Source: a virus
Taxonomy: Duplodnaviria; Caudoviricetes
Virus record (IMG/VR): IMGVR_UViG_3300049844_000087
Span: 14,423-78,422 of that record
Strand: one strand, 5' to 3'
Length of the DNA stretch: 64,000 nt
Shown: piece by piece, positions 44,505 to 63,079 of the stretch
Numbering within the stretch: position 1 is the first letter of the stretch
Layout of the letters: each line of letters begins with the position of its first letter
The notes under the pieces: model-generated
What the model was told of the DNA's origin: nothing
Database searches by the model: none
What the model saw: only the letters and a program-made list of their open reading frames with translations
Program-made: the position numbers and the translations under genes

Positions 44505-44709
44505 GACCATTATCGAAGAGGTGATCAATCCTGCACTCGAAGGACACATGGGCTGCTGCGAATTCCAGTCTTTTGAAGCTGGCATTGTGACCGTAAAGAT
44601 GGCTGGCTCTTGTCAGGCATGTCCTGGTAAGAAGCGAACATTTGAACAGGGCATCAAACCATTTTTGATGGAGCACTGCCCTGAAGTGAAGGATGTGGTG
44701 CTGGTGTGA
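44485..44709 (+). CDS. NifU/NfuA C-terminal-like Fe-S scaffold domain
   Basis: IEEVINPALEGHMG..E......VTVKMAGSCQACP....TFEQGI. Confidence 0.85.
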   Translation: MNAQEIKTIIEEVINPALEGHMGCCEFQSFEAGIVTVKMAGSCQACPGKKRTFEQGIKPFLMEHCPEVKDVVLV

Positions 44710-44939
44710 ACAAATGGTCCAAACCCCACACTAAAGGCAAAGATTGTAAAATCTGCTGTTGCAGCGGACCTGAGAAATGTAAAGAGCCAGGTTGTGACGG
44801 TTGGGTTCATCAAGACGTAGTTGACGAGATTGAGTACGAAGAAGGCGACTGGGCCTGGATGCACAACTACAAATGTGACACTTGTGGCAAAACGGAATAT
44901 TTTAACTCCGAAGAGGGGTATGAAGTGGAGATTGAATGA
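44706..44939 (+). CDS. Cys-rich small protein
   Basis: CKICCC, CKEPGC, CDTCG. Confidence 0.55.
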   Translation: MNKWSKPHTKGKDCKICCCSGPEKCKEPGCDGWVHQDVVDEIEYEEGDWAWMHNYKCDTCGKTEYFNSEEGYEVEIE

Positions 44940-45262
44940 AAAATCTTGCAATTAGCTTAGGAGCTTTGTGCTTATTGATTACGGTCATACTGCTTCTCTC
45001 TTTCAGAGAAAACGCCAATCTAAAGCGAGAACTTACGTTAGAACGAGGAGATGAAGTCGAAATCATTTACATGTCTGAATCTGAACGTGAGAATCGTTTA
45101 TTTGAGGGGTGCAGCGCACACTACATTACTGGCGTAGCCACTAGCGTAGGAAACGTGGTTCTGTTGACCCTTCGAGACTGCGCTCATCCATTTTTTAAAG
45201 ACAAGCCAGTTTATCCAGAATTACGAAACAGAGAGACTATCAGAAAGAAGTTGAATATATGA
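44936..45262 (+). CDS. Membrane-anchored hypothetical protein
   Basis: N-terminal TM helix. Confidence 0.55.
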   Translation: MKNLAISLGALCLLITVILLLSFRENANLKRELTLERGDEVEIIYMSESERENRLFEGCSAHYITGVATSVGNVVLLTLRDCAHPFFKDKPVYPELRNRETIRKKLNI

Positions 45263-45522
45263 GAGTCGGCTATCTTGGACTTCAGATGTGTAATGGATTT
45301 TCGGACAGAATGCAAGAAGGTCCGATGCAACGCTTAGTGTTCACCATTGACTGTTGGATCGAAAAGAATACCGGACTCATCTCGGAAATCACGGTCTCCC
45401 CGAAGTTCTACCACGCTCTGACCAAAGAAGTTGGTTATCCAGTCCTATTCGTAGAAACATTAGTCGGCGGCACCGAAATAGTGGTTAAGCCCATGCAAGA
45501 CACTGAAATCGAGGTTAGATGA
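45259..45522 (+). CDS. Hypothetical protein
   Basis: 87-aa ORF in operon. Confidence 0.5.
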   Translation: MRVGYLGLQMCNGFSDRMQEGPMQRLVFTIDCWIEKNTGLISEITVSPKFYHALTKEVGYPVLFVETLVGGTEIVVKPMQDTEIEVR

Positions 45523-46166
45523 TGAGACAAGTAAAGTGCGTTAGACCTTTAGGCCATTTGACGAAAGACCGCATCTACACTGTGGTCGGTGAACCCGCTA
45601 AAGATGCCAAGTGGTTAACAGTGGTAGATGACCGAGGTGAATGCGCAACTTATGATGCTGCTAGGTTCGAGGCTCTTTTAGCACCGCAGGTCGCACCAAA
45701 TTTTCGCCAGATGCAACAGATTGCAGATGAGGTAAAAATTACATGCCCTGTGGTTGAAGAAGCCGAGGCTCGCAAAGCGCAGCCCAAGACCATCATGCAA
45801 GAGTACACAGATAACCCCCAACTAGATACTTCAACTGTCCCGCTACCCGCTGCCTCAGACGTTCCATACGACGCTAACGGTCACATAACCCTAAGTGCCG
45901 AAGACTTTGACAAACTAGTCGAAGACCTAGAATCCGACCTTCCTCCATCCCCTGCCCTGCTATCCGCTAGAATTCGATTCCTATCATTAAAACTCCAAGA
46001 TTCTAAAAAAGAAGTTGACAGATTGAATCAAGTATTACAAGATAAAGACTTAGAGATTGAGACCTTAAGACGGTATGGGAATAAGGACTGTACCGCTATG
46101 GCAGAGGAAGAATTAGAAAGAGTAAGGGAAGAGTGGAAGCAAAGAATACTGAGGGGTGGAGTTTGA
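45519..46166 (+). CDS. Mosaic protein: SH3-like N-terminus, DUF1778-like segment, coiled-coil tail
   Basis: VKCVRPLGHLTKDRIYTV; ITLSAEDFDKLVEDLESDLPPSPAL; LRRYGNKDCTAMAEE. Confidence 0.55.
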   Translation: MMRQVKCVRPLGHLTKDRIYTVVGEPAKDAKWLTVVDDRGECATYDAARFEALLAPQVAPNFRQMQQIADEVKITCPVVEEAEARKAQPKTIMQEYTDNPQLDTSTVPLPAASDVPYDANGHITLSAEDFDKLVEDLESDLPPSPALLSARIRFLSLKLQDSKKEVDRLNQVLQDKDLEIETLRRYGNKDCTAMAEEELERVREEWKQRILRGGV

Positions 46167-46327
46167 GTTTGGTAAATCTTAAAAGCGAACTTTCTTCTAT
46201 ACGAACTTGGGGCATTAACTTTGTGTGGCGCAATTCGGAATGTTATCGGTATTTCAGGATTAACTTGTATATGGGCAGAAAGCATTATCAATGGGATTTC
46301 TTTCGTAAGGAGAAGTTTTTACAATGA
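46133..46327 (+). CDS. Hypothetical protein
   Basis: 64-aa ORF, start uncertain. Confidence 0.4.
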   Translation: MEAKNTEGWSLSLVNLKSELSSIRTWGINFVWRNSECYRYFRINLYMGRKHYQWDFFRKEKFLQ

Positions 46328-46530
46328 TCAAACTAGGTGGGACCATCTGCGACATGTGCCGTATCATCATCAGAGATGGAAATGCTATGTACGAGCGACA
46401 CACTAAGAAAGGTCGAATAATGCACTTTTGTTCGGACAAGTGCAAAGACAAGGATACAACTCCTGGACTGCTTAAAGCTGATTTAGGTCCGAATGCTAGT
46501 AAGAATTATAAAAAGGATCTGTTTAAATGA
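46324..46530 (+). CDS. Small Zn-finger protein with shared C-terminal tag
   Basis: CDMC...HFCSDKC; ends DLGPNASKNYKKDLFK. Confidence 0.6.
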   Translation: MIKLGGTICDMCRIIIRDGNAMYERHTKKGRIMHFCSDKCKDKDTTPGLLKADLGPNASKNYKKDLFK

Positions 46531-46982
46531 ACATATTTGTCGTTAGCCCAGAACCGTGGAAATGTGCAAGCTACCTAGACGATAAGAGGGTAGTGAAGAT
46601 GGTATTGGAGACTGCTCAACTGTTAGCGACGGCAATCAATGTATCTGGCGGAAAAGCTTCGTATAGAACAACTCATGTGAATCACCCTTGCTCGATATGG
46701 GTCAGGCAGTCTAAAGGTAATTATCAGTGGACTTTGCAGCTATTTAAGGAATTGCTTCAGGAATATGAAAACCGATACGGACGTATTCATAAGTGTAGAG
46801 ATTACATGCTTGAGTTCTGTTCTGGTGTTGATTTGATGCCAGAGGGTGAAATGACGCCTTTTGTAAACTGTACTCCATTTAAAGATGAGGCAGATGTTTT
46901 TGTTGCGTATAAAGCCTGTCTTCAAGAGAAATGGAAAAACGATAAACGGAAACCGACTTGGAAAGGTTTGAGTCATGGATGA
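46527..46982 (+). CDS. Pyrimidine-dimer DNA glycosylase / endonuclease V family
   Basis: MNIF....P..CA..L.DKRVVKM.LETAQLL...Y..TH.NHPCSIWV. Confidence 0.85.
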   Translation: MNIFVVSPEPWKCASYLDDKRVVKMVLETAQLLATAINVSGGKASYRTTHVNHPCSIWVRQSKGNYQWTLQLFKELLQEYENRYGRIHKCRDYMLEFCSGVDLMPEGEMTPFVNCTPFKDEADVFVAYKACLQEKWKNDKRKPTWKGLSHG

Positions 46983-47172
46983 GGTAAAAACCGGATACAT
47001 GTGCCAAACCGATTGGAACTGGGAATTGGGTGAAGCTTTAGGCGGAACCACGATTTACCCTACAATCGAGGATTTGAAAACGGAGCGCAAGTGTACGGAT
47101 TCTTGTGGCGTTGTGAAAGTAAAGATTGAACTTATCGAAGTTGTCGAACCAGGCAAGGAGTGGGGAAAATGA
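46975..47172 (+). CDS. Hypothetical protein
   Basis: 65-aa ORF in operon. Confidence 0.55.
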   Translation: MDEVKTGYMCQTDWNWELGEALGGTTIYPTIEDLKTERKCTDSCGVVKVKIELIEVVEPGKEWGK

Positions 47173-47325
47173 AAAACGAGAAGAGTGACAATTATTTCCT
47201 AAATAAAATTAGGGACTTTTATGAGAATGGTGGAGGCAAAGAACTAGAACAATTGCCAGACAACGTCTCATTTCTAAGAGATGAAGACGTAGAGCACTTT
47301 GTAGAACAAGTGCGAAAGGAAAAAG

Positions 47326-47628
47326 ATGAAGCGAAGTGAGGCTCTAAAACTCATAGCAAACCAATTGGATTTCCTAAATGGACGTTTTCATGGATTGCGT
47401 GTAAATTTTACAGAACAAGAATTGAAGAGTGCTGATGTCATCTTGACCACGCTCGAACAAGCCGGAATGCAACCGCCAGTTAGATACGTTCATTTTGCAG
47501 ATGGACAAAAAGTTCCTGGAAGTTACGAGTATGGAGTGGCCGATTACACTTGGGAACCTGAAGATGGCGCTCAACAAGATCAGCGAGCTTTTTGGGATGA
47601 TGACAATCGTGGTAGTGGTGCGGTATGA
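47326..47628 (+). CDS. Hypothetical protein
   Basis: MKRSE...A..IL..LEQAGMQPP...WEPE phage pattern. Confidence 0.6.
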   Translation: MKRSEALKLIANQLDFLNGRFHGLRVNFTEQELKSADVILTTLEQAGMQPPVRYVHFADGQKVPGSYEYGVADYTWEPEDGAQQDQRAFWDDDNRGSGAV

Positions 47629-47775
47629 GCAAGAACGTAATGAAAGCCATTTTGATCAACGTTTGCTTATTGTTGGGAGCTTTGTCCGAAACGCCAGAGC
47701 GAAAAGCAGTCGCAATGTACTTTGTACTGGTGGCAGCTCTAGTTGCTGCTGATCATGTAAAAAATATACTAAACG

Positions 47776-47943
47776 ATGAAAACTAAAGACTACGTTGCCG
47801 AGAGATTGAAAATCTGTAAAGCCTGTCCTGCTAACCGTGGTTTTCGTTGTTCGGTGTGTAAATGTTTCATAGAGGTCAAGGTGAGAGTGAAATGGGCTTC
47901 GTGCCCAAAGGGGAAATGGGGAGAGTACCGTGAGTCACGATAA
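47776..47943 (+). CDS. DUF6171-like Cys-rich miniprotein
   Basis: Below track cutoff; MKTKDYVAERLKICKACP...CSVCKCFIEVK...ASCPKGKW. Confidence 0.7.
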   Translation: MKTKDYVAERLKICKACPANRGFRCSVCKCFIEVKVRVKWASCPKGKWGEYRESR

Positions 47944-48175
47944 TTTGCTTATTCAGGTAGAAAACACCAAATTTGCTATTTGTCTAATAACGGACAACCA
48001 TAAGCAGCATGTGCTGGCTCATTTGCGTTATGCCTACAAGCCTCGTATCATGAGACATATACTTGACCATTTGTATCTGTGGTTTAGAGCTAGACGAATG
48101 GGAATTCCAAATATCAGCCTCGAAGAAGTTTTGTCCAGCGTTCGAGGATTGCAGAAAGAAAAGGGGAATAAGTGA
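47930..48175 (+). CDS. Hypothetical protein
   Basis: 81-aa ORF. Confidence 0.45.
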   Translation: MSHDNLLIQVENTKFAICLITDNHKQHVLAHLRYAYKPRIMRHILDHLYLWFRARRMGIPNISLEEVLSSVRGLQKEKGNK

Positions 48176-48286
48176 TGTACGAAAGTTTCGCAGCCCGACT
48201 ATTAGCATTTTGGATACCAGTCATAGCATCCTTGATTTTAGGATACCTGCTGGGAATGAATACCGGACACGTTCAAGTGATCAAAG

Positions 48287-48799: not shown

Positions 48800-48827
48800 A
48801 TTGATGATAATGTATATTATCGTCAGA
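48800..48827. other. dif-like tyrosine-recombinase site
   Basis: ATTGATGATAA-TGTATA-TTATCGTCAGA: 11-6-11 layout, core ATAATGTATATTAT identical to E. coli dif, arms nearly symmetric. Confidence 0.7.
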
Positions 48828-49025: not shown

Positions 49026-49052
49026 TTAAGTCCTGTCAATTGACGCCGATAA
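49026..49052 (+). promoter_or_regulatory. sigma28-type promoter 1
   Basis: TTAAGTCC-11-GCCGATAA. Confidence 0.7.
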
Positions 49053-49099
49053 GTATAAGGTCAAGACAAGCAAGTCTTGCAAAACAAAGGAGTATCAAA

Positions 49100-49351
49100 A
49101 TGAAACGAAATTCAATCAACGGACATCTTGTTTCAATATGGAACGAAATCGTTGACCAACTAAGTCTGTCTCAATATGAGTCAACTATGGGTGGCGACAT
49201 GTCTTATAAGTCTAAGGCGGAAAGGGCAATGCAAGTGTCTCGAAATAAGACGGTTCATGCCTTATGTCTCGAATTGATAAACGTCTATGATTCTCATTTC
49301 GGGACAAGTGCCTTAACTGTCTCAAATAGAGACTTTTCTGATTTTGAGTGA
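49100..49351 (+). CDS. Early hypothetical protein
   Basis: ATG 49100 after AAAGGAGTATCAAA. Confidence 0.7.
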   Translation: MKRNSINGHLVSIWNEIVDQLSLSQYESTMGGDMSYKSKAERAMQVSRNKTVHALCLELINVYDSHFGTSALTVSNRDFSDFE

Positions 49352-49383
49352 TTTTCACGGTCTGTCAATATAAGGCTTTCGTC

Positions 49384-49415
49384 AAGGCGGCGGTTTCAAG
49401 ACCGCCGTTTTATTT
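49384..49415 (+). terminator. Intrinsic terminator
   Basis: GGCGGCGGT-TTCAAG-ACCGCCGT then TTTTATTTTT. Confidence 0.7.
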
Positions 49416-49606
49416 TTGCTTATCCTTATCAGTCCTGAAAGCCGTTGACCTGTCTTGTCTGTCCTTATGCCTTTCGGTCTGTCTTATCCTGTCTTGTCCT
49501 TATGTTTCCTTATACGGTCTTAAGACTTTCAATTTATTTTTTGCTGTCTAAGGCATTGAATTCAAGGTCGAATCTCATTTTGAGAATAAATAGTTGACTT
49601 TTTCTC

Positions 49607-49633
49607 TCAAGTTTTATAAACTGAAACCGATAA
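49607..49633 (+). promoter_or_regulatory. sigma28-type promoter 2, overlapping sigma70-like TTGACT-17-TAAACT (49594-49622)
   Basis: TCAAGTTT-11-ACCGATAA. Confidence 0.8.
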
Positions 49634-49681
49634 GACAGTATAAGCAAGTCAAGACGGCTTGCAAAACAAAGGAGTATCAAA

Positions 49682-49855
49682 ATGAGAATACCTAAGTTGC
49701 CAATTGGACAAGCGAACGTGTGTATCAAAAAGATACGGACAGCGAAAGCGCAAGGCTGCAAAATGCTGAAAGGCTGGAAAGCGATGAAATCGGCTCAAAT
49801 TGAGACGGCTTTCAATACGCCAGTCCTTTGTATCAAAGTGAGACGTGCGGCATAA
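49682..49855 (+). CDS. Early 57-aa basic protein
   Basis: Below track cutoff; MRIPKLPIGQANVCIKKIRTAK... after the conserved SD. Confidence 0.7.
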   Translation: MRIPKLPIGQANVCIKKIRTAKAQGCKMLKGWKAMKSAQIETAFNTPVLCIKVRRAA

Positions 49856-49884
49856 GTTTTTTTTGATTTTTTTGCTTTCAGGTC

Positions 49885-49911
49885 TCAAGTTTATTTTTGA
49901 TTGACCGATAA
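49885..49911 (+). promoter_or_regulatory. sigma28-type promoter 3
   Basis: TCAAGTTT-11-ACCGATAA. Confidence 0.8.
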
Positions 49912-49961
49912 GACAGTATAAGCGGCGAAATGATTCGACCGCAAAAACAAGGAGTATCAAA

Positions 49962-50756
49962 ATGAGTCAGATTCAAGTTTTCGACAAAAATGCAGGTTTC
50001 AACGTATCAGAACGATACAAGGCTGTTAACACGGCGACTTTGGTGTCTCAATTCGAGGCGGCTGGCTATACAGTGTCTCAAGTTAAGACGGCTCGTGTTC
50101 GCTTGCCTGAAAAGCAAGGCTTTCAAAAACACCTTATCAGATTGAGACATCCGTCGTTGACAGTCAATGCGCTTTCAGGCTTGACGCCCGAAATCGTTGT
50201 CTCAAATTCATACGATGGCACGGCGGCTTTCCGTCTCATGATGGGAATTTTCCGCATTGTCTGCTCGAACGGTCTCATTGTGGGACAGGCTTATGAGTCA
50301 ATTCGAGTCGTCCACGTTGGCGACGCATTGACTAAGGTCTTGCAAGCCGCAAATCGAGTTCAGTCTCAAACTGATACGATTGCGTCTCAAATCGAGAAAT
50401 GGTCGTCAATCCAATTGACCGATGCACAAGCGTCTCAATTTGCGACAGCAGCAAGCAAGTTGCTTTTGCCGTCTCAAAGTGATACAAACGTGATTCCATT
50501 GGTTCGTTCTGAGACACTTTTGAAAGTCCGCCGTCTTGACGATAGGTCTCAAGACCTTTGGACCGTATTCAATCGAATTCAGGAAAATGCTTTGCAAGGC
50601 GGTCTGTCTTATACTCGACTCGGCGGTCAAGGTCAAGTCCGAAACATGACGGCACGTCGAATCAATTCGATTGACCGATCAATCGAAGTCAATCGGGCCT
50701 TATGGGATCTTGCGTCTCAGATTGAGACAAGCGGTGGCATTATTCAAGCCGCATAA
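49962..50756 (+). CDS. DUF932/DUF945 family protein
   Basis: SERY......L......G....Q...R...K..FQKH.IRLR...PEIVV.NSYDG..AF.LM.GIFR.VCSNGLIVG. Confidence 0.85.
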   Translation: MSQIQVFDKNAGFNVSERYKAVNTATLVSQFEAAGYTVSQVKTARVRLPEKQGFQKHLIRLRHPSLTVNALSGLTPEIVVSNSYDGTAAFRLMMGIFRIVCSNGLIVGQAYESIRVVHVGDALTKVLQAANRVQSQTDTIASQIEKWSSIQLTDAQASQFATAASKLLLPSQSDTNVIPLVRSETLLKVRRLDDRSQDLWTVFNRIQENALQGGLSYTRLGGQGQVRNMTARRINSIDRSIEVNRALWDLASQIETSGGIIQAA

Positions 50757-50771
50757 GGTCAAGACCTTGAA

Positions 50772-50805
50772 ACGGCGGCGCTTTCGAGCGCCGTCGATTT
50801 TTTTG
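50772..50805 (+). terminator. Intrinsic terminator
   Basis: ACGGCGGCGC-TTTCGA-GCGCCGT hairpin then T-tract. Confidence 0.65.
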
Positions 50806-50814
50806 ATTTTTGCC

Positions 50815-50841
50815 TTAAGTTTTATTTTTTTGCGCCGATAA
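50815..50841 (+). promoter_or_regulatory. sigma28-type promoter 4
   Basis: TTAAGTTT-11-GCCGATAA. Confidence 0.85.
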
Positions 50842-50885
50842 GCATAAGGTCAAGGCATTGACGCCGAGACCGAAGGAGTATCAAA

Positions 50886-51173
50886 ATGAGAACATTCAAG
50901 TTTATAAGGTTTCAAGACTTGACAGGGACAAGCGGCGTCGGTCACGTTGCAAGCGGTCAAGTTGACGCAAGCGGCTTGACTCAAGTCCGCTGGACCGTTG
51001 ACGCAAGACTTGCGGACGGCTCGACTCGCAAGATCAATTCAGTGACTCAATTTGAGACGTGGACTGATGCGGTCTTGCTTCACGGTCACGGCGGACGGAC
51101 TGTCTTAGTTTGGGACGACACCAACGAAACTGTCTCAGATTTAGACATCTTAGGCTTGAAAGCCGCCGCATAA
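50886..51173 (+). CDS. Conserved phage hypothetical protein
   Basis: MRTF...R..D.TG.SG.G.VA.G......G....RW......HGHGG.T..VW. Confidence 0.75.
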   Translation: MRTFKFIRFQDLTGTSGVGHVASGQVDASGLTQVRWTVDARLADGSTRKINSVTQFETWTDAVLLHGHGGRTVLVWDDTNETVSDLDILGLKAAA

Positions 51174-51202
51174 GTTTTTTTTGATTTTTTTGCTTTCAGG
51201 TC

Positions 51203-51229
51203 TCAAGTTTTAAAACTTTCGACCGATAA
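51203..51229 (+). promoter_or_regulatory. sigma28-type promoter 5
   Basis: TCAAGTTT-11-ACCGATAA. Confidence 0.8.
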
Positions 51230-51277
51230 GACAGTATAAGCAAGTCAAGACGGCTTGCAAAACAAAGGAGTATCAAA

Positions 51278-52024
51278 ATGAGATTGTTAACTGAAGCCCA
51301 TGCCAATGCGAAAACCGCAAAAAATGCCTCAAAAGGAGATTTTCTGTCCTATATTTTGCATTTTGCGCCTTATAAGCTTTCAGGCGTCAACGTCTGTCCA
51401 ATGGCAAGCCGTGGATGCGCCGCCGCTTGCCTTAACACGGCTGGACGTGGCCGTTTCGATTCGATACAACAGGCTCGTATCAAAAAGACACAACGATTTT
51501 TTAAAGACCGTCAAGGTTTCCTTGCGGACTTAGTTAAGGACTTGCAAGCGGTCGAGCGCAAGGCAAAAAAACACGGCTTGCAAGCGGTCGTGAGACTCAA
51601 CGGGACAAGTGACATTGACTGGACCGCTGTCAAGACAGACGACGGTCAAAACGTGTTCGAGCGTTTCAAAACGATACAGTTTTACGACTATACCAAAGTG
51701 ATACGCCGTCTCGAAAAGATGCGTCTCAATCCGATACCTAATTATCATTTGACATTTTCTCGAAGTGAGTCAAATCATGCTGACTGTCTCAAAGCGATAC
51801 AGTTAGGTTTCAACGTTGCCGCCGTGTTTCAAACTGAGGCGTTTCCTGAAACCTTTGAAAGCCGTCCAGTGATTGACGGCGACTCTCACGACTTGCGTTT
51901 CCTTGACTTGAAACCGCTGGACGGTCAAGGCGCTTTCGTTGCCTTGAAAGCCAAAGGACAGGCAAAAAAAGACCTTTCAGGTTTCGTGATTCAACTTGAG
52001 ACAGCCATCGGAAAGGTGGCTTAA
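51278..52024 (+). CDS. GP88-family protein (radical-SAM-related)
   Basis: NAKT.K, VCPMASRGCAAACL, RLNGTSDI, QFYDYTK, YHLTFSRSE, DGD.HDLRFLD. Confidence 0.85.
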   Translation: MRLLTEAHANAKTAKNASKGDFLSYILHFAPYKLSGVNVCPMASRGCAAACLNTAGRGRFDSIQQARIKKTQRFFKDRQGFLADLVKDLQAVERKAKKHGLQAVVRLNGTSDIDWTAVKTDDGQNVFERFKTIQFYDYTKVIRRLEKMRLNPIPNYHLTFSRSESNHADCLKAIQLGFNVAAVFQTEAFPETFESRPVIDGDSHDLRFLDLKPLDGQGAFVALKAKGQAKKDLSGFVIQLETAIGKVA

Positions 52025-52025
52025 T

Positions 52026-52217
52026 ATGAGACAAATCAAATTAAAACAGTCAATGATTCAAGATGAGACACTATGCTGTCCGTACTGCATGGACGAAGTG
52101 TCTCAAGATGATACAGGTTGTTGTGGCGAGTCGTCGGCTCATTTTGAGAAAGCTTATGTGACTCAAGATGAGACATATCTTGACTCTGAGGTCGAAATCA
52201 TTGACGACTCAAATTGA
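52026..52217 (+). CDS. Small Cys-rich acidic protein
   Basis: CCPYC...GCCGES; ATG 52026. Confidence 0.6.
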   Translation: MRQIKLKQSMIQDETLCCPYCMDEVSQDDTGCCGESSAHFEKAYVTQDETYLDSEVEIIDDSN

Positions 52218-52243
52218 TTCAAAAATAAAGTTGACCGAAAGTC

Positions 52244-52270
52244 TCAAGTTTTAAAACTTTCGACCGATAA
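52244..52270 (+). promoter_or_regulatory. sigma28-type promoter 6
   Basis: TCAAGTTT-11-ACCGATAA. Confidence 0.8.
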
Positions 52271-52334
52271 GGATAAGGACAGCAAAAAAACCGAGACCGT
52301 CAAGACGGCGGTCTCAAAACAAAGGAGTATCAAA

Positions 52335-52814
52335 ATGGGATATACGCATTATTTCACTTTCAAAAAAGCGCCGAAAGGCAAGGCGTCTCAAATCGAGACG
52401 AACTATCAAAAGGCATTGATTGACTGTCAACGTATCATTTTGGCATATAGCAACGTCAACGGCGGTCTGTCCGGTTTCAGTGCCCATACCAAATTGGGAC
52501 AGTATGGCGGTCTCAATGTGAATGGCTCAAAAGAAGACGGTCACGAGACTTTCGTCTTGCGTGAACACTTTTCTCAAAATGAGTCATTCAATTTTTGCAA
52601 GACCGCTCGAAAGCCTTATGATACGGTCGTCACGGCTTGCCTTATCGTCTTGTCTTATCGACTCGGCGCTTGCATTGACGTGTCAAGCGACGGCGACGCA
52701 ACGGACTGGACCGAAGGCTTGCGGCTTGCGCAAAAAGTTCTCAAATTGAAACGATTACAAATTCCATCAGGTGTCTCAAATCGAGACAACGATTCAATGG
52801 ATGAGTCGGCTTGA
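52335..52814 (+). CDS. Conserved phage hypothetical protein (MGYTHY family)
   Basis: MGYTHY...HETF...FNFCKTARKPYD..V.A.L...SSDG. Confidence 0.75.
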   Translation: MGYTHYFTFKKAPKGKASQIETNYQKALIDCQRIILAYSNVNGGLSGFSAHTKLGQYGGLNVNGSKEDGHETFVLREHFSQNESFNFCKTARKPYDTVVTACLIVLSYRLGACIDVSSDGDATDWTEGLRLAQKVLKLKRLQIPSGVSNRDNDSMDESA

Positions 52815-52878
52815 TACTCCACGCCCCTGTCTCATTTTGGGGCAGGGGCTTTCTTAACATAAGCAAAGGAGTCTCACA

Positions 52879-53073
52879 ATGGAACGTATCAAAATGCAAC
52901 GAAGTGTTTGGTGGCCTATCAAATTGAAACAAGGTCAAACTGTCTCATTTCAAGGCAAGACTTATAAGGTCGTGTCTCAAACTGAGAAACCTTCTGATTC
53001 ATGGTGTTTCAGAATGAGATACTACACGTCTCTAATCGAGACAGAAATGGAGTCTCAAAATGGGATCAACTAA
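52879..53073 (+). CDS. Early hypothetical protein
   Basis: SD AAAGGAG. Confidence 0.6.
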   Translation: MERIKMQRSVWWPIKLKQGQTVSFQGKTYKVVSQTEKPSDSWCFRMRYYTSLIETEMESQNGIN

Positions 53074-53665
53074 TATCGAATTGATACAAAAAGGAAAGCT
53101 GTCTCGAAATGAGATTTACGACGCTTTCAAAAATCAGCAAGATCAAGACCGTCTCGAAAATGGACATCAATCGGGATATTCTGGCGACTTTCAAACTGTC
53201 TCAAAAGTAGACTATCGACTTGATCAAGTCTTTACGTCTCAATCTGAGGCACATGATTTTTGTTTGAAACATGCCTCAAAATGGGACACTGTGGTGGCCG
53301 TCTATTTTCTTGACCTGAAAGTCGAAAGCAAGCGCATTGATAAGGCAAGGCAAGCGGTCAAGGCATTGACTCAAGACCTTGCAAGCCTTGAATCGACGCC
53401 GCTTGATAAGTCCAGCGGTTTCAAGACTTGCGGCGCTTGCAAGTCTCGACTTTCAATGAGTCACGTCAAGCGGTCTTGCTGTCCAGTCTGTCAATCGGAC
53501 TTAAGACCGAAAGCCTTAGTCAAGCGCATTGAAAGCCTGAAAGCAAAAATCAAGGCGGCGCAAGACAGGCTCGAAAGTCTTGTCAAGTCCGAAAGGCAAA
53601 AAGCATTGACGAAAGCAAAACCGTCTCAATTTAGTACGATGCTGGCTGGCTGGGGAGCGTGTTAA
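53060..53665 (+). CDS. Early protein with Zn ribbon and coiled coils
   Basis: GH.SGYSGD, CGACKS...CCPVC; ends AGWGAC. Confidence 0.7.
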   Translation: MGSTNIELIQKGKLSRNEIYDAFKNQQDQDRLENGHQSGYSGDFQTVSKVDYRLDQVFTSQSEAHDFCLKHASKWDTVVAVYFLDLKVESKRIDKARQAVKALTQDLASLESTPLDKSSGFKTCGACKSRLSMSHVKRSCCPVCQSDLRPKALVKRIESLKAKIKAAQDRLESLVKSERQKALTKAKPSQFSTMLAGWGAC

Positions 53666-53684
53666 TTTGAGACACAAAAATCCC

Positions 53685-53712
53685 TTAAGTTTTTGAGCGT
53701 TTCGACCGATAA
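53685..53712 (+). promoter_or_regulatory. sigma28-type promoter 7
   Basis: TTAAGTTT-12-ACCGATAA. Confidence 0.7.
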
Positions 53713-53743
53713 GGTTTCAGACAATAAACAAAGGAGTATCAAA

Positions 53744-53992
53744 ATGAGTCAATCAAATGTTATCAAGTTGAATGATCGTCGAGCAAGTCCAGTCAATGAG
53801 GAAAGTCTTTTGCTGGTCAACCTTGCGCAAGTATTGATCGAAGTCGTGAGGCAACACGGAGCCCACACGACATTGACAGCGGTCCAAGGCATGATTCAAG
53901 AGGCACAAAAACAAGTCCGCACCGAGCGTCAACACAAGCCGACAAAGACCAATCTACCTGTCTCAAAACGAGCCGTTGGGGGTGCCAAGTGA
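53744..53992 (+). CDS. Early hypothetical protein
   Basis: ATG 53744 after the conserved SD. Confidence 0.65.
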   Translation: MSQSNVIKLNDRRASPVNEESLLLVNLAQVLIEVVRQHGAHTTLTAVQGMIQEAQKQVRTERQHKPTKTNLPVSKRAVGGAK

Positions 53993-54198
53993 AATGTCTC
54001 ATTGTGAAGCATACCCTTGGCGGTCGTTCTTGGTACATGGTCCAGCAAGGCGCTTTGACCTTATCGACTCCGCTCGACACTTTCGAGCAAGCTACCGAGT
54101 GGATCAAGTCAATGGCTGGTGTCCAGCGTCTCGGATGCTACCGCATAAGCGACGACTTGACAGCGGTCCATTTTGAAGAGTCGAAAGGAGTCTCATAA
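53989..54198 (+). CDS. Early hypothetical protein
   Basis: GTGA overlap. Confidence 0.5.
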   Translation: MKCLIVKHTLGGRSWYMVQQGALTLSTPLDTFEQATEWIKSMAGVQRLGCYRISDDLTAVHFEESKGVS

Positions 54199-54500
54199 TG
54201 GAACAGCCTAAGCTTATCGCAAGGCTCGAAGAGATTGTCAAAGGTATTGACAGACATCAACGAGTCAATGCGTCGGACATGCCAATGCTGGCACAGTTTT
54301 TGAAAGTAGAGATTGCAAGGCTTAAGCGTATCAATTCAGCGCAAACAGTCGAGCGCATGAGACAAATTTCGGAGCGGCTTAGCGACTTAAGTCCAAAGAT
54401 TGACAGCGGTCGTTTCAAGTATTCCGAAAAGCAAGAAAAGGACAGGCTTGTCAATGAGTATCTAGAATTGGAACAACAAATTGAAGGGGTTTCAAAATGA
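54198..54500 (+). CDS. Early coiled-coil protein
   Basis: SD AAAGGAG, TAATG overlap. Confidence 0.6.
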   Translation: MEQPKLIARLEEIVKGIDRHQRVNASDMPMLAQFLKVEIARLKRINSAQTVERMRQISERLSDLSPKIDSGRFKYSEKQEKDRLVNEYLELEQQIEGVSK

Positions 54501-54715
54501 AACGTAATGCGTATCTCTTTGAGACAGATGCCTTTCAAGTGAGAGTTTACAACGAAGCCGAGACCGTTGACATGTTTGGTCAAGACTACCTCGAAGAGTA
54601 CGGTCACACGGTCCCGATTGAATTGCTCGAAAGGTATCGAAAGGCTTTCGTCGAAATGCAAGCCGTACAAGATCAATTGAGAGCCATTATAAAGACTCAA
54701 GAAAAGGAGTATTAA
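54497..54715 (+). CDS. Early hypothetical protein
   Basis: ATGA overlap. Confidence 0.6.
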   Translation: MKRNAYLFETDAFQVRVYNEAETVDMFGQDYLEEYGHTVPIELLERYRKAFVEMQAVQDQLRAIIKTQEKEY

Positions 54716-54716
54716 A

Positions 54717-54938
54717 ATGATACTAATTAAAGGTCAATCCAAATATGCCAGAGTTGAGCGTCTTGTCCATAAGTTAGACGATGACATACTGTCTTGGATC
54801 GAGTCACTTGAGGAGTCGGGTTTCGTGATCTTGTTCACCAATCTACCGTCTCACATTAATACACATGAGGTGTACGCCGCAATTCTACTTGATCAGTTCG
54901 CAGATATGTATCTACCTGAGACATCTACAGGTCACTAG
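54717..54938 (+). CDS. Early hypothetical protein
   Basis: SD AAGGAG. Confidence 0.55.
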   Translation: MILIKGQSKYARVERLVHKLDDDILSWIESLEESGFVILFTNLPSHINTHEVYAAILLDQFADMYLPETSTGH

Positions 54939-54975
54939 GGTGACATTTTTTTATTGTAATACTTGATAATTTTGC

Positions 54976-55003
54976 TAAAGTATTTCAATCAACCTACCGA
55001 TGA
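54976..55003 (+). promoter_or_regulatory. Possible variant sigma28 promoter
   Basis: TAAAGTAT-12-ACCGATGA, -10 inside CCTAC...GTAGG hairpin. Confidence 0.45.
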
Positions 55004-55027
55004 GAGTAGGAGAAAGGCAAGGGACCA

Positions 55028-55816
55028 ATGTTTAAGTTTGAATCAATAGACCAATTAGACACAAAGGGCAACACAAGCTGGCTCATTGAGGGACTTTTGC
55101 CAGAGTCGTCAACTTGTCTCGTGGCAGGTGATCCCAAGACGAGAAAGTCTTGGTTGGCAGGGGAATTGCTAGTCAGTATTGCCACAGGTGAGAAGTGTTT
55201 CGGAGTTTACAACGTTGTCAAGCAAGGTCGAGTGATGATGATACAAGGCGAGGACAGCGGTGCAATCATTCGAGAGCGTCTAGAGCAAATCAATCGAGCC
55301 AAGCAAGGCAGTGCCAAGGCATTGAAAGAGAATGTTTCAATCGTGGCAGGTCAAAGCTTTGCGCTTGATAATGATGAACACTTTGAGGCATTGCGCTTGC
55401 AAGTCTTAAAGGAAAGGCCATTGCTTATCATTTTAGACCCTTTGGTCCGTCTCATTCCGAACACTGCCGAAGGTTCAACGTCTCAGATGTCTAAGATTTT
55501 GACAAAGCTTCGTCACTTGCAACGTGACAGCGGGACATCAATCATGCTGGTGCATCACAACAAGACATCGAAGTCTAAGAATGCCGCTGACAATATCCGA
55601 GGCAGTTCAGACTTGCGGTCCTGGTATGATGCGGCGTATTTCCTGACCAAGCCAGTCGGACACGTCACGCAAATTGATTTTGAATTCAAGGCTTTCGGCG
55701 AGCAACCTGCTTTCTTCTTTGAATTAAAGAATGCGAACACTGGACTTGCGCCGATGGGACTTGTATCAATGGAAGACATTAGAAAGTTGGTTAAAAATGA
55801 AAACGATATTGTATAA
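55028..55816 (+). CDS. AAA_25 / RecA-fold (RepA-helicase-like) ATPase
   Basis: WLIEGLLP, GDPKTRKSW, MIQGED, IILDPL, LVHHNK, IRGSS. Confidence 0.85.
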   Translation: MFKFESIDQLDTKGNTSWLIEGLLPESSTCLVAGDPKTRKSWLAGELLVSIATGEKCFGVYNVVKQGRVMMIQGEDSGAIIRERLEQINRAKQGSAKALKENVSIVAGQSFALDNDEHFEALRLQVLKERPLLIILDPLVRLIPNTAEGSTSQMSKILTKLRHLQRDSGTSIMLVHHNKTSKSKNAADNIRGSSDLRSWYDAAYFLTKPVGHVTQIDFEFKAFGEQPAFFFELKNANTGLAPMGLVSMEDIRKLVKNENDIV

Positions 55817-56033
55817 ACGACACATTGCATTCCATATTGGAGACGTTTTACTTGTCTCATTTTCAGACAAGCCTTCTCGTTTTCAAGTTGTTGAAGTTAA
55901 CAAGCGCAAAAACATTTTAAAAATTGAGGTATTAGAGGATCATTACAAAGATCCGTTTCAAGTTGGAGCAGTCGTCGATATAGGAACGCAGATTTTTAAA
56001 AAGTATTGGTTTTTTAATTTTGAAAACCGCTAA
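55797..56033 (+). CDS. SH3/KOW-like small protein
   Basis: FHIGDVLLV; ATG 55797. Confidence 0.5.
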   Translation: MKTILYKRHIAFHIGDVLLVSFSDKPSRFQVVEVNKRKNILKIEVLEDHYKDPFQVGAVVDIGTQIFKKYWFFNFENR

Positions 56034-56057
56034 AGTTTTTCAGAATTGTGCCGATAA
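56031..56057 (+). promoter_or_regulatory. sigma28-type promoter 8 (perfect consensus)
   Basis: TAAAGTTT-11-GCCGATAA. Confidence 0.9.
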
Positions 56058-56077
56058 GCATTGAAATAGGAGAGAAC

Positions 56078-56290
56078 ATGGGACCGTATGCTTACGCAAT
56101 TAAAATTAACTATGGAAAGCAGAAAGTGCAAACGAGTCACAAAGCTTTGTTGCCAGACACGGCGATAAATATCGAACAATTGCAAGAGATTGTAGGCCAT
56201 AACACTTTTGTTTTTGTTGCAGAGGATAGCTCATTCTCGCAAGACATTTTTGTTTGTTGGAATACTTATCGAGATGAGACTGATGAATAG
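56078..56290 (+). CDS. Early hypothetical protein
   Basis: ATG 56078 after AGGAG. Confidence 0.55.
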   Translation: MGPYAYAIKINYGKQKVQTSHKALLPDTAINIEQLQEIVGHNTFVFVAEDSSFSQDIFVCWNTYRDETDE

Positions 56291-56359
56291 CAAGCGTCTC
56301 GAATTGCGAAAGACGAAGCTTACATGGCTGAGTATAGAAAAAGAAATTCAAAATAACGC

Positions 56360-56386
56360 TAAAGTTTTTTGGAAAGCTGCCGATAA
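56360..56386 (+). promoter_or_regulatory. sigma28-type promoter 9 (perfect consensus), before rIIA
   Basis: TAAAGTTT-11-GCCGATAA. Confidence 0.9.
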
Positions 56387-56431
56387 GTATTATATGAAAG
56401 GCAATGAAGCCGAGTAACAAGGAGTAATAAA

Positions 56432-58498
56432 ATGAGAATCGCAGGACACGGTAACAAATACGAAAGCAATCAACAAACTGAGACACAGTCGTTTGGCATC
56501 GGTGATGCAAGCGTGGTGATCGAAATCCTGCGCAATAGATTGTATGAGCATAAGATTCGCACACTCGTTCAAGAGTATATGAGCAATGCTCGTGATGCTC
56601 ATCGTGAGGCTGGACAGACACGACGCATTGAAGTTGTGGCACCGACTCAACTTGAGCCAACATTCAAGGTTCGAGACTTTGGTCCTGGCATTAGTCCAGA
56701 CCGCATGGCTAACGTGTTCGTGCTTTACGGAGCATCAACAAAGCGTCAAAACAATACACAAACTGGTGGCTTTGGCATCGGTGCTAAGTCCGCATGGTCT
56801 TATGCTGATGGTTTCATCATCGTGTCAACGGTCAACGGCACTCGTCGCACTTATCATGCACACGTTGGAGCGTCTAACGTTGGTCAACTTGACTTGCTGT
56901 CTACTGAAAAGACAGACGATCCGAATGGATGCGAAATTCAAGTGGCAGTCAATCCTCGTGATGTTACAGAATTTTGTAACTCGATCAAGCGTGCATGTTA
57001 CTTCTGGAATAAAGAAGAGACTCCACTGCTTAAGAATGTGACACTCCCTGATGCGCTGTCAACTTATGATGTCAACGCTTTGAGCATCGTACCTAGCAAC
57101 GTGTCAATGCCTGACTTCTTGAATGCTTATGGTCGCACTGACTTGCTAGTCGTTGACGGCATCATTTACAACCTTAACAGAGACTTGCTCGACAAGGTGC
57201 CACAGTTGCGAGACCTTCGCAACGAATTGAATGGCTCGATGGTGATCCGTATCCCTAATGGTCTTGTGCAAGTATCAGCAAGCCGTGAGAAGCTTGACGA
57301 CTCAGACTTCACTCGTAAAGGTCTTGCTAAGATTGGCACGAAACTATTGACTGACGTAAAGAAACACGTTTCAGATAAGATCGGCGCAATCTCTACTGTC
57401 AAAGGTTTCGTTGAGACTTATCACAGCATGTTCCGTTTCTTTGTGATGCAGAACAACGAGTACAAAGGTTTCCGTTTCGATGGACAGTTCCTTTACACTC
57501 CCCTTTTGGGTTCAGTTCACTTCGCAAAGTACACTGAATTCAGAGACAAGGTCAAGGCATCGTCTACCAAGGGAATTCCTTTCGAGCACATGGACAGAAT
57601 TTTCTTGCAAACTAAAGACGAGAATGCGGTCACATTCAATCGCAGAGTTCGAGCGTATCTCGCAAACAACCCTGAAATGTATGTGATCAGAGAGCGTCAA
57701 ACTACCTCTATCGACTCGACTGGAGCAACGGTCCAATTGAAGTTTGATGTTCCACCTGCGAAAGCCATGAAAGAATTGCAAGCTGTCTTGAACAAGTTTC
57801 AAGACTTTCATTCGATCAGTTTCGTAGTTCCACCTCGAACGCCGAAAGCCATGAAAGCCGCAAAGCTTGCGTCACAGCAAAGTTTTCACTACTTGAATGG
57901 CTGGGGCCGAGATACTCAAAACACGACCGTCACAGACTTGCAGTCCAAAGGTCGGGAGTACATTTACTTGCTGGTCTCTGAGTGGCAGAACGAAGGAAAG
58001 TACAAGTACAATCCGATGATCAAAGAATTCGGCGGTGACAGACGTGATCCTAAGTGCAAAAAGCCGATCTTTATCGCCGTGTCCAATACCACTGCGGACA
58101 TCATTAAGGACGAAGCTGGCTTCACTCCTTATGCTGATTGGATTGCCGGAGTCAAGTTAACTAATGATCTGCGTCTCAGAATGATGAATGCTAAAGCGTT
58201 GAATTCAGACGTGATTGAGAAACTGTCTCAACTTGAGGGTGTTAAGAATAAAAAGTTGACTAAAATGGTCGATCATTATAAGCTGATGAAGAAAGCCGCA
58301 AGTCAAGTTCACGGTTCGGAAGTACCTGACATGCTGGTAAAGATGTTTAAAGATGATGCGGACTATGTATCTTTCCTTGAGCAAGATCAAGAATTGAAAA
58401 CCTTGATCAATGATAAGTATCCGTTGCTTAAGCACATGGACCGATACTCGCACGCTGAATGTAAACGTGAAATGACTTGGTATTTGAACAATAAATAA
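56432..58498 (+). CDS. rIIA: RIIA-like protein (GHKL ATPase N-terminus)
   Basis: ILRNRLYEHKIRTLVQEYMSNARDAH, VRDFGPGIS, YGASTK, GGFGIGAKS. Confidence 0.85.
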   Translation: MRIAGHGNKYESNQQTETQSFGIGDASVVIEILRNRLYEHKIRTLVQEYMSNARDAHREAGQTRRIEVVAPTQLEPTFKVRDFGPGISPDRMANVFVLYGASTKRQNNTQTGGFGIGAKSAWSYADGFIIVSTVNGTRRTYHAHVGASNVGQLDLLSTEKTDDPNGCEIQVAVNPRDVTEFCNSIKRACYFWNKEETPLLKNVTLPDALSTYDVNALSIVPSNVSMPDFLNAYGRTDLLVVDGIIYNLNRDLLDKVPQLRDLRNELNGSMVIRIPNGLVQVSASREKLDDSDFTRKGLAKIGTKLLTDVKKHVSDKIGAISTVKGFVETYHSMFRFFVMQNNEYKGFRFDGQFLYTPLLGSVHFAKYTEFRDKVKASSTKGIPFEHMDRIFLQTKDENAVTFNRRVRAYLANNPEMYVIRERQTTSIDSTGATVQLKFDVPPAKAMKELQAVLNKFQDFHSISFVVPPRTPKAMKAAKLASQQSFHYLNGWGRDTQNTTVTDLQSKGREYIYLLVSEWQNEGKYKYNPMIKEFGGDRRDPKCKKPIFIAVSNTTADIIKDEAGFTPYADWIAGVKLTNDLRLRMMNAKALNSDVIEKLSQLEGVKNKKLTKMVDHYKLMKKAASQVHGSEVPDMLVKMFKDDADYVSFLEQDQELKTLINDKYPLLKHMDRYSHAECKREMTWYLNNK

Positions 58499-58527
58499 AC
58501 AGACCGAAAGGTCAGAAAGAAGGATTT

Positions 58528-58851
58528 ATGGAAACAATTAGCATTAACCGCATCATGGCTCGATCATTTATGAATACGTTGCAGTACGCAATGGTGATTG
58601 ATCAAGCCGCTCCAGTATTGCAATTAGACCGAGTCGGAGCCTTGCGGTTTCGATTGCTGAGCGATGCACAGTTGTCGGTTCTTTACAGCCTTGCGGCGCA
58701 TGTAACTGACCGCAATGAGGTCTTGGCCGAATATGATCTGATGATAAACACTGTTAAAGAGAAGTCACCTGACAATGCTTTCGTGCTTTCAGCATTGACA
58801 GAAGGTCGAGAGGCTTTGACAGAATTGTTAATTCAAGCAAAAAGTCACTAA
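58528..58851 (+). CDS. Hypothetical protein between rIIA and rIIB
   Basis: SD GAAGGA. Confidence 0.55.
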   Translation: METISINRIMARSFMNTLQYAMVIDQAAPVLQLDRVGALRFRLLSDAQLSVLYSLAAHVTDRNEVLAEYDLMINTVKEKSPDNAFVLSALTEGREALTELLIQAKSH

Positions 58852-58875
58852 AGTTTTTTGAAAAGTTGCCGATAA
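58849..58875 (+). promoter_or_regulatory. sigma28-type promoter 10 (perfect consensus), before rIIB
   Basis: TAAAGTTT-11-GCCGATAA. Confidence 0.9.
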
Positions 58876-58898: not shown

Positions 58899-59834
58899 AT
58901 GACACAAGTAAACTATCACATCACTCAAAATAGCGTGACTGTGAATTTTGAAGGAAAAACGTTTGCGATTGCTCGTGGCGACGAAAGGTTTCCAAGAGTT
59001 ATCGCAGCAATCAAGGAAAGCCGCTTGACAGATATTCCAGACATCGTGGATATTTACAAGCAATTTCAAGCTGATGGGCTTCGCTTGGTTGACGGTCAAG
59101 TCGTCACTTCAGACGGCGAGGCATTGCCAACGGAACTAAATGCTCGAATTCTTGAGTTTAGACGTGAGGGTTTGCCCTTTGAACACTTGCTCAAGTTCTG
59201 GGAAAACCTTAAGAGCAATCCTAGCTTTCGGTCTCGTGAACAGTTGTTCAAGTTTCTTGAACACAATGGACATCCGTTGACTGAGGACGGCTGCTTCATT
59301 GCCTACCGAGGCGTGACAAGCGACTTCAAAGATAAGCACACCGGAAAGTTTGACAACTCCCCTGGTGCCATTTGCGAAATGCCTCGAACGCAGGTTGATG
59401 ATGATCCTACTAGGACTTGCAGCGCAGGTCTGCACGTCGCAGCGTGGGAGTATGCTTCAGGCTTTGGCGAGACAAAGATAGAAGTTAAGGTCAATCCAAA
59501 GGACGTTGTTGCGGTGCCAGTTGATTACAACGGTCAAAAGATGCGTGTTTGTCGCTTTGAAGTGATTCAGCAATGTCACGACATGCGTGCTGATGAAGCT
59601 TTGTACGGTCGCAAGAACACGTTCCAAGACGAGGAAGTAGATCCGTTTGATTATGAAAACGAAGAAGACCACGGCTATGAGGGTATTGATGAGTCAGTTA
59701 GAGAAGACATTCTCCACTTGGCAAATCAACACTCACAGTACGAAGGTGAAGCTTTGGTTATGCGAGTGTGTGAGGATTCATTTGAAGAAGAAGAAACGAT
59801 TAGGCAAATTTTGTCAGATGATGGTCGTATTTAA
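58899..59834 (+). CDS. rIIB: RIIB-like protein
   Basis: FWENL..NP, FL......LTEDG.FIAYRGV, DNSPG, MPR.QVDDDP..TCS.GLHV, V.P.DVV.VP.DYN..K.R.C. Confidence 0.9.
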   Translation: MTQVNYHITQNSVTVNFEGKTFAIARGDERFPRVIAAIKESRLTDIPDIVDIYKQFQADGLRLVDGQVVTSDGEALPTELNARILEFRREGLPFEHLLKFWENLKSNPSFRSREQLFKFLEHNGHPLTEDGCFIAYRGVTSDFKDKHTGKFDNSPGAICEMPRTQVDDDPTRTCSAGLHVAAWEYASGFGETKIEVKVNPKDVVAVPVDYNGQKMRVCRFEVIQQCHDMRADEALYGRKNTFQDEEVDPFDYENEEDHGYEGIDESVREDILHLANQHSQYEGEALVMRVCEDSFEEEETIRQILSDDGRI

Positions 59835-61778: not shown

Positions 61779-61975
61779 TCCTTAAGCTGCTGAAGAAACC
61801 TTTCACCATCAGCATCCAAGCACTGAAGGGCATTTCGATTTTGCTTTCTCGGAATGGGTTTCTCTAGGTACTCAACCACTTCTTCAAGTGTGAGACCGAA
61901 GTCAAGCTTGTCACCATACGATAGCATGTGGACCAACTCAACTAAGAGGCGATCCCTTTCCGACAACCTTCTCAT
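61754..61975 (-). CDS. Hypothetical protein
   Basis: 73 aa, last gene of converging minus block. Confidence 0.5.
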   Translation of the reverse strand: MRRLSERDRLLVELVHMLSYGDKLDFGLTLEEVVEYLEKPIPRKQNRNALQCLDADGERFLQQLKDYLVDRKS

Positions 61976-62331
61976 TACAACACCGTGATAGTTGAGATTA
62001 CTCGCATCAATTCTGAGTGTACGGCTTGGTTAAGCTGCGTACTTTCTTCAGAAGGGACTGCGTGTTTCAACTGTTTTGCGGCTTCAACGGCGTCCATTAC
62101 TTCAAGCAGAGTCATGCCTACTAGCTCACGGCCAGAAACATAACCTCCACCTGGGCCACGCACAGAGCGAAGAGCGCCATGAATGCGCAAAGCCCTAGCA
62201 ACTTGCTCCAAGAAGTTAAGATCAAGTTGGTGCTTTTGTGCCACCGACTTCAATTTCACTGGACGACCATCTGCCTGGTCTCGAACTTCTCGCAAGAGAG
62301 TTAGAGCATATTGAACTTTTGCAGTGATCAT
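61975..62331 (-). CDS. Rrf2-family winged-helix regulator without Fe-S cysteines
   Basis: YAL..L, LEQV...L...G.L.SVRGPGGGY; no Cys; ATG 62331. Confidence 0.85.
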   Translation of the reverse strand: MITAKVQYALTLLREVRDQADGRPVKLKSVAQKHQLDLNFLEQVARALRIHGALRSVRGPGGGYVSGRELVGMTLLEVMDAVEAAKQLKHAVPSEESTQLNQAVHSELMRVISTITVL

Positions 62332-62332
62332 T

Positions 62333-63079
62333 TTAGATACCTCCGATAAACTCTCGAAGCAGTTCGAGAGGAACAAATAAACTACCATACACTTTACTTC
62401 TGTCTTTTGCATGACCTGTGCGCTTCTCTGACGTAAGGAGATTAGACATTACGCCTACCACTTCGCCATCACTATTAATTACCGCAGAGCCACTGATACC
62501 GTACCAAGCAAGCATGTTTGACTCGTTGTAAATACCCAGCCAATAAGGATCATGTTTCTTAATCACACCTTTCAAGTAGACAGGACCGCCTTGAGGAAAT
62601 CCATACGAAGAAACGACATCGCCAATTTTATAACTCTTAGCAATCTTCAAAGTATGTTTAAAGCGCATGGGAGTGTAGATTAAACAAAGATCAGCATTCT
62701 GTGACACTTTAATGATCTGTCCTGGGCTCTTCTTTCCATTTCGTCTAGTCACTTCAGCAAATCCGAATCTATAGACATCTTGCCCATACGTTCGCTGTTC
62801 TTGCGGCCTGAATATTCCGTTAGAGCAGACGTGCTTATTAGTAACGATGAAGGCACCTTGTTCAGTCTGACTGACTACAAAACCAGTTCCACCACTGCAC
62901 GCATTTCTATAAATACACACTGATAGTTGAACCGTAGCATCTTTCAAGTCTTCTTCGATCTGCGTAGCTCTGTACTCTTTGTACTCTAAGTTGAGGTGTC
63001 TAACTCCCCCAACTGCCGCAACTAGCAGGGCAAAGACTAGAGCAATTCTCACGCCTTTAATAATTCTTCGTAGTATCAC
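62333..63079 (-). CDS. Trypsin-like (S1) serine protease, membrane anchored
   Basis: GTGF, VTNKHVC, DLCL, GISGSAV; N-terminal TM. Confidence 0.9.
   Translation of the reverse strand: MILRRIIKGVRIALVFALLVAAVGGVRHLNLEYKEYRATQIEEDLKDATVQLSVCIYRNACSGGTGFVVSQTEQGAFIVTNKHVCSNGIFRPQEQRTYGQDVYRFGFAEVTRRNGKKSPGQIIKVSQNADLCLIYTPMRFKHTLKIAKSYKIGDVVSSYGFPQGGPVYLKGVIKKHDPYWLGIYNESNMLAWYGISGSAVINSDGEVVGVMSNLLTSEKRTGHAKDRSKVYGSLFVPLELLREFIGGI

Follow-up and report, generated by a model that had tools for sequence, protein, structure and literature searches.

Sigma28-type promoters and a recurrent 15-bp palindrome in the early-type module of a myovirus that probably infects Bdellovibrionales

In a 64,000-nucleotide (nt) stretch of a Caudoviricetes virus (positions 14,423 to 78,422 of the IMG/VR record IMGVR_UViG_3300049844_000087; referred to here as the window, whose numbering we use unless another contig is named), we identified eleven sites of the sigma28 (FliA) type, all on the + strand between 49.0 and 58.9 kb, together with a 15-bp palindrome, GTCTCA-N3-TGAGAC, that is repeated through much of the same block. 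The relaxed pattern that finds these eleven sites finds zero others over the rest of the 78,422-bp contig, and when the region itself was used to train Markov models (orders 1-4), the simulated sequences held on average only 0.015-0.12 sites per run, and no more than 2 in any of 200 runs. The feature is therefore real, and we interpret it as host-promoter mimicry with a predicted function. Taken as a whole, the data are in our judgement probably best explained by promoters for the host FliA that head the early module of a Bdellovibrionales myovirus and that would copy the attack-phase promoter design of its host.

The sites combine a -35 box of the TAAAG type with a -10 box of the GCCGATAA type, 11-12 nt apart, and they lie upstream of co-oriented genes at conserved positions. 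A first-pass annotation, made from the sequence alone, had listed at least ten of them. All ten are present on the + strand; an eleventh, P8 (54976-55003, with a 12-nt spacer), had been overlooked, and this site lies before an AAA_25 gene (55028-55816) and is conserved in three related phages (G001, L211 and L213). P1 (49026-49052), before an 83-aa gene (49100-49351), is the weak member, since its -35 box, TTAAGTCC, has three mismatches from the consensus and falls outside the pattern under which it had been reported. P2 (49607-49633) precedes a 57-aa open reading frame (49682-49855) and is overlapped by a sigma70-like pair (49594-49622) that L213 keeps, and P3 (49885-49911) precedes a DUF932 gene (49962-50756) and has a palindrome half-site fused to its -35 box. 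P4 (50815-50841) follows a terminator-like hairpin (50773-50796) and precedes a gene encoding an Acb5-like protein, P5 (51203-51229) precedes a GP88 gene (51278-52024), and P6 (52244-52270) precedes a 159-aa gene (52335-52814). P7 (53685-53712), which indeed has the 12-nt spacer reported for it, lies before a small-gene operon that begins at 53744. The three sites described as perfect matches are exactly that: P9 (56031-56057), before a 70-aa gene starting at 56078; P10 (56360-56386), before rIIA (56432-58498); and P11 (58849-58875), before rIIB (58899-59834). The T-tract said usually to precede the ten listed sites was found at six of them (a run of at least five T within 40 nt), and the Shine-Dalgarno block said to follow them is present at seven, with 0-3 mismatches, and absent at the last three.

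Each promoter is followed by one to four genes, which comprise small genes and those for DUF932, Acb5-like, GP88, AAA_25, rIIA and rIIB proteins, with terminator-like hairpins between some of the transcription units of the 49-59 kb block. Clusters of small genes with many promoters, terminators, rIIA/rIIB and anti-defence cargo are the typical layout of an early, host-takeover module. Based on this gene content and layout, and on sigma70 promoters at matching positions in relatives, we infer that the block is an early-type module for host takeover and anti-defence.

A motif scan identified relatives of this phage, including a complete and colinear one (G001; 117,954 bp, capsid 90.5% identical), in which 7-8 sigma28-type sites, all sharing a strand, precede the corresponding genes. 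Sites before these genes are kept in six relatives whose rIIA proteins are 42-95% identical (G001, L211, L212, L213, L123 and L124). In four more distant relatives (L150, L214, L215 and L216), the coding strand of the homologous module is free of sigma28 sites; sigma70 or sigma54 consensus promoters take their place, spaced equivalently from the start codons. Three of these (L214, L215 and L216, in the regions flanking rIIA) have three to four sigma54-type and several sigma70-type promoters for the same early module, and G001 itself has a lone sigma54-type site (92574, - strand) before its first early gene. An rIIA tree gives good support to a close sigma28 clade, with long branches that obscure how many times the arrangement arose. 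The sigma28 reading has a limit, in that sigma70-like promoters serve the other modules (conserved examples lie at 29666, 29718 and 43961) and overlap at least one sigma28 site (at 49594).

The simplest reading is that the host supplies the sigma factor, because promoters are swapped position for position among relatives, no phage sigma factor or RNA polymerase was detected, and the motif equals the host consensus. The first-pass annotation had read the sites in the same way and had named a phage-encoded sigma factor as the finding that would overturn this. Our searches of the complete relative returned no Sigma70_r2 match, no TIGR02937 match over the cut-off and no RNA polymerase catalytic motif. 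All that was found is an 84-aa protein (29377-29631, - strand) with a lone Sigma70_r4 domain, conserved in the clade, which lacks region 2, the melting domain, and is thus not a full sigma factor; its gene heads the virion arm under a sigma70-like promoter (29632-29666, - strand) that is conserved in G001. A post-portal protein considered as a phage sigma factor was rejected, as its FliA match is weak (E 0.004) and it resembles VG15-like viral clusters. We therefore regard the eleven sites as most likely promoters read by the host FliA (sigma28) holoenzyme, a dependence predicted from motifs and their conservation. The alternative is that a phage specificity factor, either a very divergent sigma or the lone region-4 protein acting with host polymerase, reads them as middle or late promoters. 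The SPO1-like capsid would suit this, SPO1 being a phage that uses its own sigmas, as would the conservation of the 84-aa protein and the 33% of the genome that is absent from the record. We nevertheless consider it very improbable, given the lack of a region-2 match in the complete relative, the identity of the motif with the host consensus, the host sigma70/sigma54 promoters at equivalent sites in relatives, the placement of the region-4 gene, which belongs to the virion arm and has a sigma70-like promoter, and the character of the one weak FliA match. A second palindrome family, TGACGCA-N-TGCGTCA, occurs just upstream of the early module (48415, 48537 and 48675) and before the promoter of the region-4 gene (29681); it is conserved in G001, L212 and L127 and is a candidate operator for the 84-aa protein.

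The second component of the design is the 15-bp palindrome, which the first-pass annotation had overlooked although it forms part of both the promoter design and the "Shine-Dalgarno block". The block from 48.8 to 55 kb has a strongly skewed word content that resolves into this palindrome, with 59 copies at no more than two mismatches between 48828 and 55000. The repeated Shine-Dalgarno/start block is itself a copy of the palindrome that spans the ATG. Eight of the eleven inferred transcription start sites have copies 54-135 bp upstream, and both here and in G001 a copy overlies the -10/+1 region of the sigma70-like promoter that heads the virion arm. The same carpet is present in G001, and members of the sigma28 clade contain 13-63 palindromes, compared to 0-1 in the sigma54/sigma70 relatives. 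Inside coding sequence there are 44 copies, compared to 4.0 (maximum 7) after synonymous recoding. We take the palindrome to be a putative binding site of a host regulator. This intragenic excess calls for a further role, as a decoy or a coat. It is possible, though we would put it below an even chance, that such a role is the main one, with the roughly 60 sites titrating a host regulator (for example, an attack-phase repressor) or covering the DNA that enters first; the sigma28 reading would be unchanged. The intragenic copies, far above what activation needs, speak for this, as do host copies that overlap the -35 box, the spacer or the start codon in the manner of operators, and a similar carpet beside sigma28 sites in two unrelated uncultured phages (L221 and L047). 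The upstream copies, however, sit at distances equal to those of host attack-phase promoters, and a decoy role is compatible with the explanation we prefer. In a further unrelated virus contig (L005, 11286-11354), a perfect sigma28 site near the contig end has five copies upstream of it, in a 17-bp tandem array.

A survey of bacterial genomes demonstrated that 70 of 81 Bdellovibrionales genomes contain exact copies of the palindrome, 598 in all, compared to 12 for a reversed control. In the other groups sampled it stays at background: 41 genomes from another class of the phylum hold 12 copies in total, it occurs in 4 of 41 Bacteroidota genomes, and zero copies were found in E. coli K-12 and two proteobacterial megaplasmids. 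In hosts, the copies are mostly intergenic. Of the 25 exact copies in Bdellovibrio bacteriovorus HD100, 8 have their centres 53, 60, 64, 64, 71, 75, 86 and 96 bp upstream of start sites that were mapped in the attack phase (binomial p 2e-4 to 1.5e-3 when compared with a null built on promoters); one copy is found 203 bp upstream of fliA. Some host promoters even show the fusions seen in the phage, with the palindrome merged into the -35 box (L164 and L191) or placed over the start codon (L227, L230 and L231). For example, a conserved host gene for a 100-aa protein has a sigma28 site and, in three genomes, a palindrome over its start codon that nearly matches the phage leader at 53705-53752. 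In Bdellovibrionales promoters, that near fliA among them, the palindrome appears to act as a cis-element that has yet to be described; our literature searches, whose coverage is incomplete, found no published description of it. Like the NtrC site, it is a dyad of odd length around a centre of 3 nt; it also fits T-N11-A, and its distances are those of an activator, all features of the NtrC/Fis-type or LysR-type operator architectures with which we compared it. Its half-site differs, and we leave the family unassigned.

Several proteins were considered as the binder. The 100-aa protein is helical, is found only in Bdellovibrionales-type genomes within the phylum sample, and has a conserved sigma28 site with a palindrome nearby (L227, 1207-1509, - strand); it has no Pfam family and no fold match above Z 4.6, leaving no support for it as a self-regulating binder. 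The 84-aa Sigma70_r4 protein, considered as a binder of host origin, has no chromosomal homologue in 61 genomes and gave a poor single-sequence model. Bd3465 and Bd3101, annotated as attack-phase regulators, have no DNA-binding domain in Pfam.

Regarding the host, a capsid gene 93% identical to that of the phage is located on a 15-kb phage contig in the metagenome-assembled genome SG_bin7, a name that matches the family SG-bin7 of the Bdellovibrionales (PMC11080526), and SG_bin7 encodes a FliA 72% identical to that of HD100. The palindrome is stronger host evidence than this co-binning, in that the phage carries a regulatory motif enriched in Bdellovibrionales against controls from a few groups. 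Both lines support the predatory Bdellovibrionota host that the first-pass annotation had suggested, and we consider a Bdellovibrio-like predator (Bdellovibrionales) the most likely host. Of the other routes to the host, the auxiliary genes, ClpP and NifU, are uninformative, and no spacer of a clustered regularly interspaced short palindromic repeat (CRISPR) array and no prophage linked the phage to any of 384 Bdellovibrionales genomes. Short DNA matches considered as spacers or prophage remnants proved to be a leader, a Shine-Dalgarno region and a collagen repeat.

The missing spacer and prophage link is one of several points that weigh against our interpretation. Short contigs binned with Saccharibacteria and Chitinophaga also hold relatives, co-binning being weak evidence alone, and near-consensus sites would also be read by the FliA of other bacteria. 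The palindrome controls left out Myxococcota, Desulfobacterota, Bacillota and Spirochaetota, and, since the HD100 start sites were mapped for the attack phase only, the regulator that binds the palindrome could be a general one. The cultured Bdellovibrio phages phi1402 and phi1422 contain neither a sigma28 cluster nor a palindrome carpet, so the dual-motif design is not universal among Bdellovibrio phages. Another flagellated host with FliA, SigD or WhiG, together with a phage protein that binds the palindrome, would account for a core motif that is the universal sigma28 consensus, for the lack of a spacer link, for a NifU gene without host signal and for a capsid closest, among cultured records, to those of Bacillus phages (35%). 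We consider this quite improbable, since the palindrome is enriched in phage-free Bdellovibrionales chromosomes, where it is arranged as in the phage, and SG_bin7 points to the same order.

It is in the attack phase that the predator is exposed to phage, as growth takes place inside prey. FliA dominance in this phase, which the first-pass annotation had stated, is borne out by HD100, where 92 of 140 attack-phase promoters (66%) have a FliA motif and where attack-phase cells do not replicate (PMC3627812); promoters with the motif also tended to be stronger in the attack phase in reporter tests (PMC12622784). We propose that the phage copies the attack-phase promoter design of its host, with a near-consensus FliA core and putative host-regulator sites (the palindrome). 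On entry into a free-swimming attack-phase cell, host FliA, probably aided by the palindrome regulator, would read the one to four small genes behind each promoter, and their products would be anti-defence and takeover proteins. Promoters of the sigma70 type would then serve the replication and assembly genes, perhaps chiefly once prey has been entered, and the virion-arm promoter may be kept off by the palindrome that covers it while the regulator is bound. The HD100 distances fit an activator, and the position of the virion-arm copy fits repression; we give about even chances to a regulator that is both an activator and a late repressor. More tentatively, and with rather less than even confidence, the host life-cycle switch could be the clock of the phage: FliA and an undescribed, order-wide attack-phase regulator would run the early module and hold the virion arm, sigma70-led growth in prey would release replication and assembly without any phage sigma, and the carpet would titrate or recruit the regulator.

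With promoters and host unchanged, the module could also serve persistence: the phage would rest in an attack-phase cell that does not divide, either as an episome or integrated by its own tyrosine recombinase, while FliA expresses anti-defence and exclusion genes until prey entry. A dif-like 28-mer with palindromic arms (48800-48827) adjoins the first copy of the 15-bp palindrome and is kept in G001 (four mismatches), the phage encodes a tyrosine recombinase (33636-34472), and attack-phase cells are non-replicating (PMC3627812), all of which would fit. An integrated copy was found neither in 384 genomes of the order nor among GTDB capsid matches, the dif-like 28-mer has no good match in the four host genomes searched, and relatives run the same module on sigma70/sigma54, which makes this unlikely in our view, although it overlaps our preferred explanation if infection merely pauses.

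The record (G000) is annotated as a 67%-complete virus. The phage is a myovirus with a tail sheath, and its capsid is 35% identical to those of SPO1-like Bacillus phages, the best among cultured records; the intact phage is probably a myovirus of roughly 118 kb. The window also contains a tRNA-Met gene (30170-30247) and four host-like genes, for a class IV aminotransferase, a NifU domain, an Rrf2 regulator and ClpP (30224-31231, 44485-44709, 61975-62412 and 63323-63913, respectively), and G001 encodes a probable GroEL, identified from a look at the sequence, and a PHB_acc_N DNA-binding protein (44663-48278). The Acb5-like protein encoded downstream of P4 (50886-51173, + strand; 95 aa) shares 80% identity with a protein of a relative that is labelled PF26761 Acb5, an anti-CBASS family (acting against the cyclic-oligonucleotide-based anti-phage signalling system) that cleaves 3'3'-cGAMP. 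It has no direct match in a Pfam profile search, and its R8, W36 and His residues agree by eye with those named for Acb5, Acb5A itself being outside the comparison. Since Bdellovibrio reportedly produces 3'3'-cGAMP as a life-cycle signal via Bd0367 (PMC9140294), the predicted target of this protein could be host signalling as well as CBASS. Bd0367 is itself listed under a FliA attack-phase promoter in HD100.

A whole early module on the flagellar sigma suits a host that is exposed during an attack phase run by FliA, and a single phage family then holds one module in versions wired to sigma70, sigma54 or sigma28. For studying how the attack and growth programmes are switched, the natural array of sites, 6 kb long, offers a bait with which the binding protein could be caught; if the life-cycle switch does act as the phage's clock, the carpet would point to the missing regulator of the attack-to-growth transition. 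The two motifs together are, in addition, a host marker for uncultured phages.

To our knowledge, textbook lytic phages start with the housekeeping sigma or their own polymerase. The early modules of SPO1, T4 and T5 are likewise clusters of small genes with strong co-oriented promoters of host type, terminators, rIIA/rIIB and anti-defence cargo; these phages use the housekeeping sigma (sigmaA/sigma70) and switch later via phage factors, SPO1 gp28/gp34 and T4 gp55 being examples of such sigma cascades, whereas here the sigma is the flagellar one and no phage sigma was found. The phages phi1402 and phi1422 (PMC3391216) are likewise myoviruses of the proposed host order, and much smaller. The FliA attack-phase promoters of HD100 (PMC3627812) have the same -35 and -10 boxes at the same spacing as the phage sites; a G follows the -10 octamer at 39 of 39 sites in the phage clade, compared to about 26 of 34 HD100 sites with the same -10 core. 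The phage sites differ in being phage-borne, nearer to the consensus and clustered, and in the palindrome, which is undescribed in that study. The first-pass annotation knew of no well-described phage early programme built on sigma28, and literature searches, again of incomplete coverage, found none for a lytic phage. The nearest case in print is fliC_P, a flagellin gene of Enterobacter prophages under a FliA promoter (bioRxiv 10.1101/2023.11.30.569447), in which a phage gene likewise runs on the host FliA programme. That system is one flagellar cargo gene in a lysogen, whereas here a whole non-flagellar early-type module is headed by 11 promoters and combined with what we interpret as mimicry of host regulator sites.

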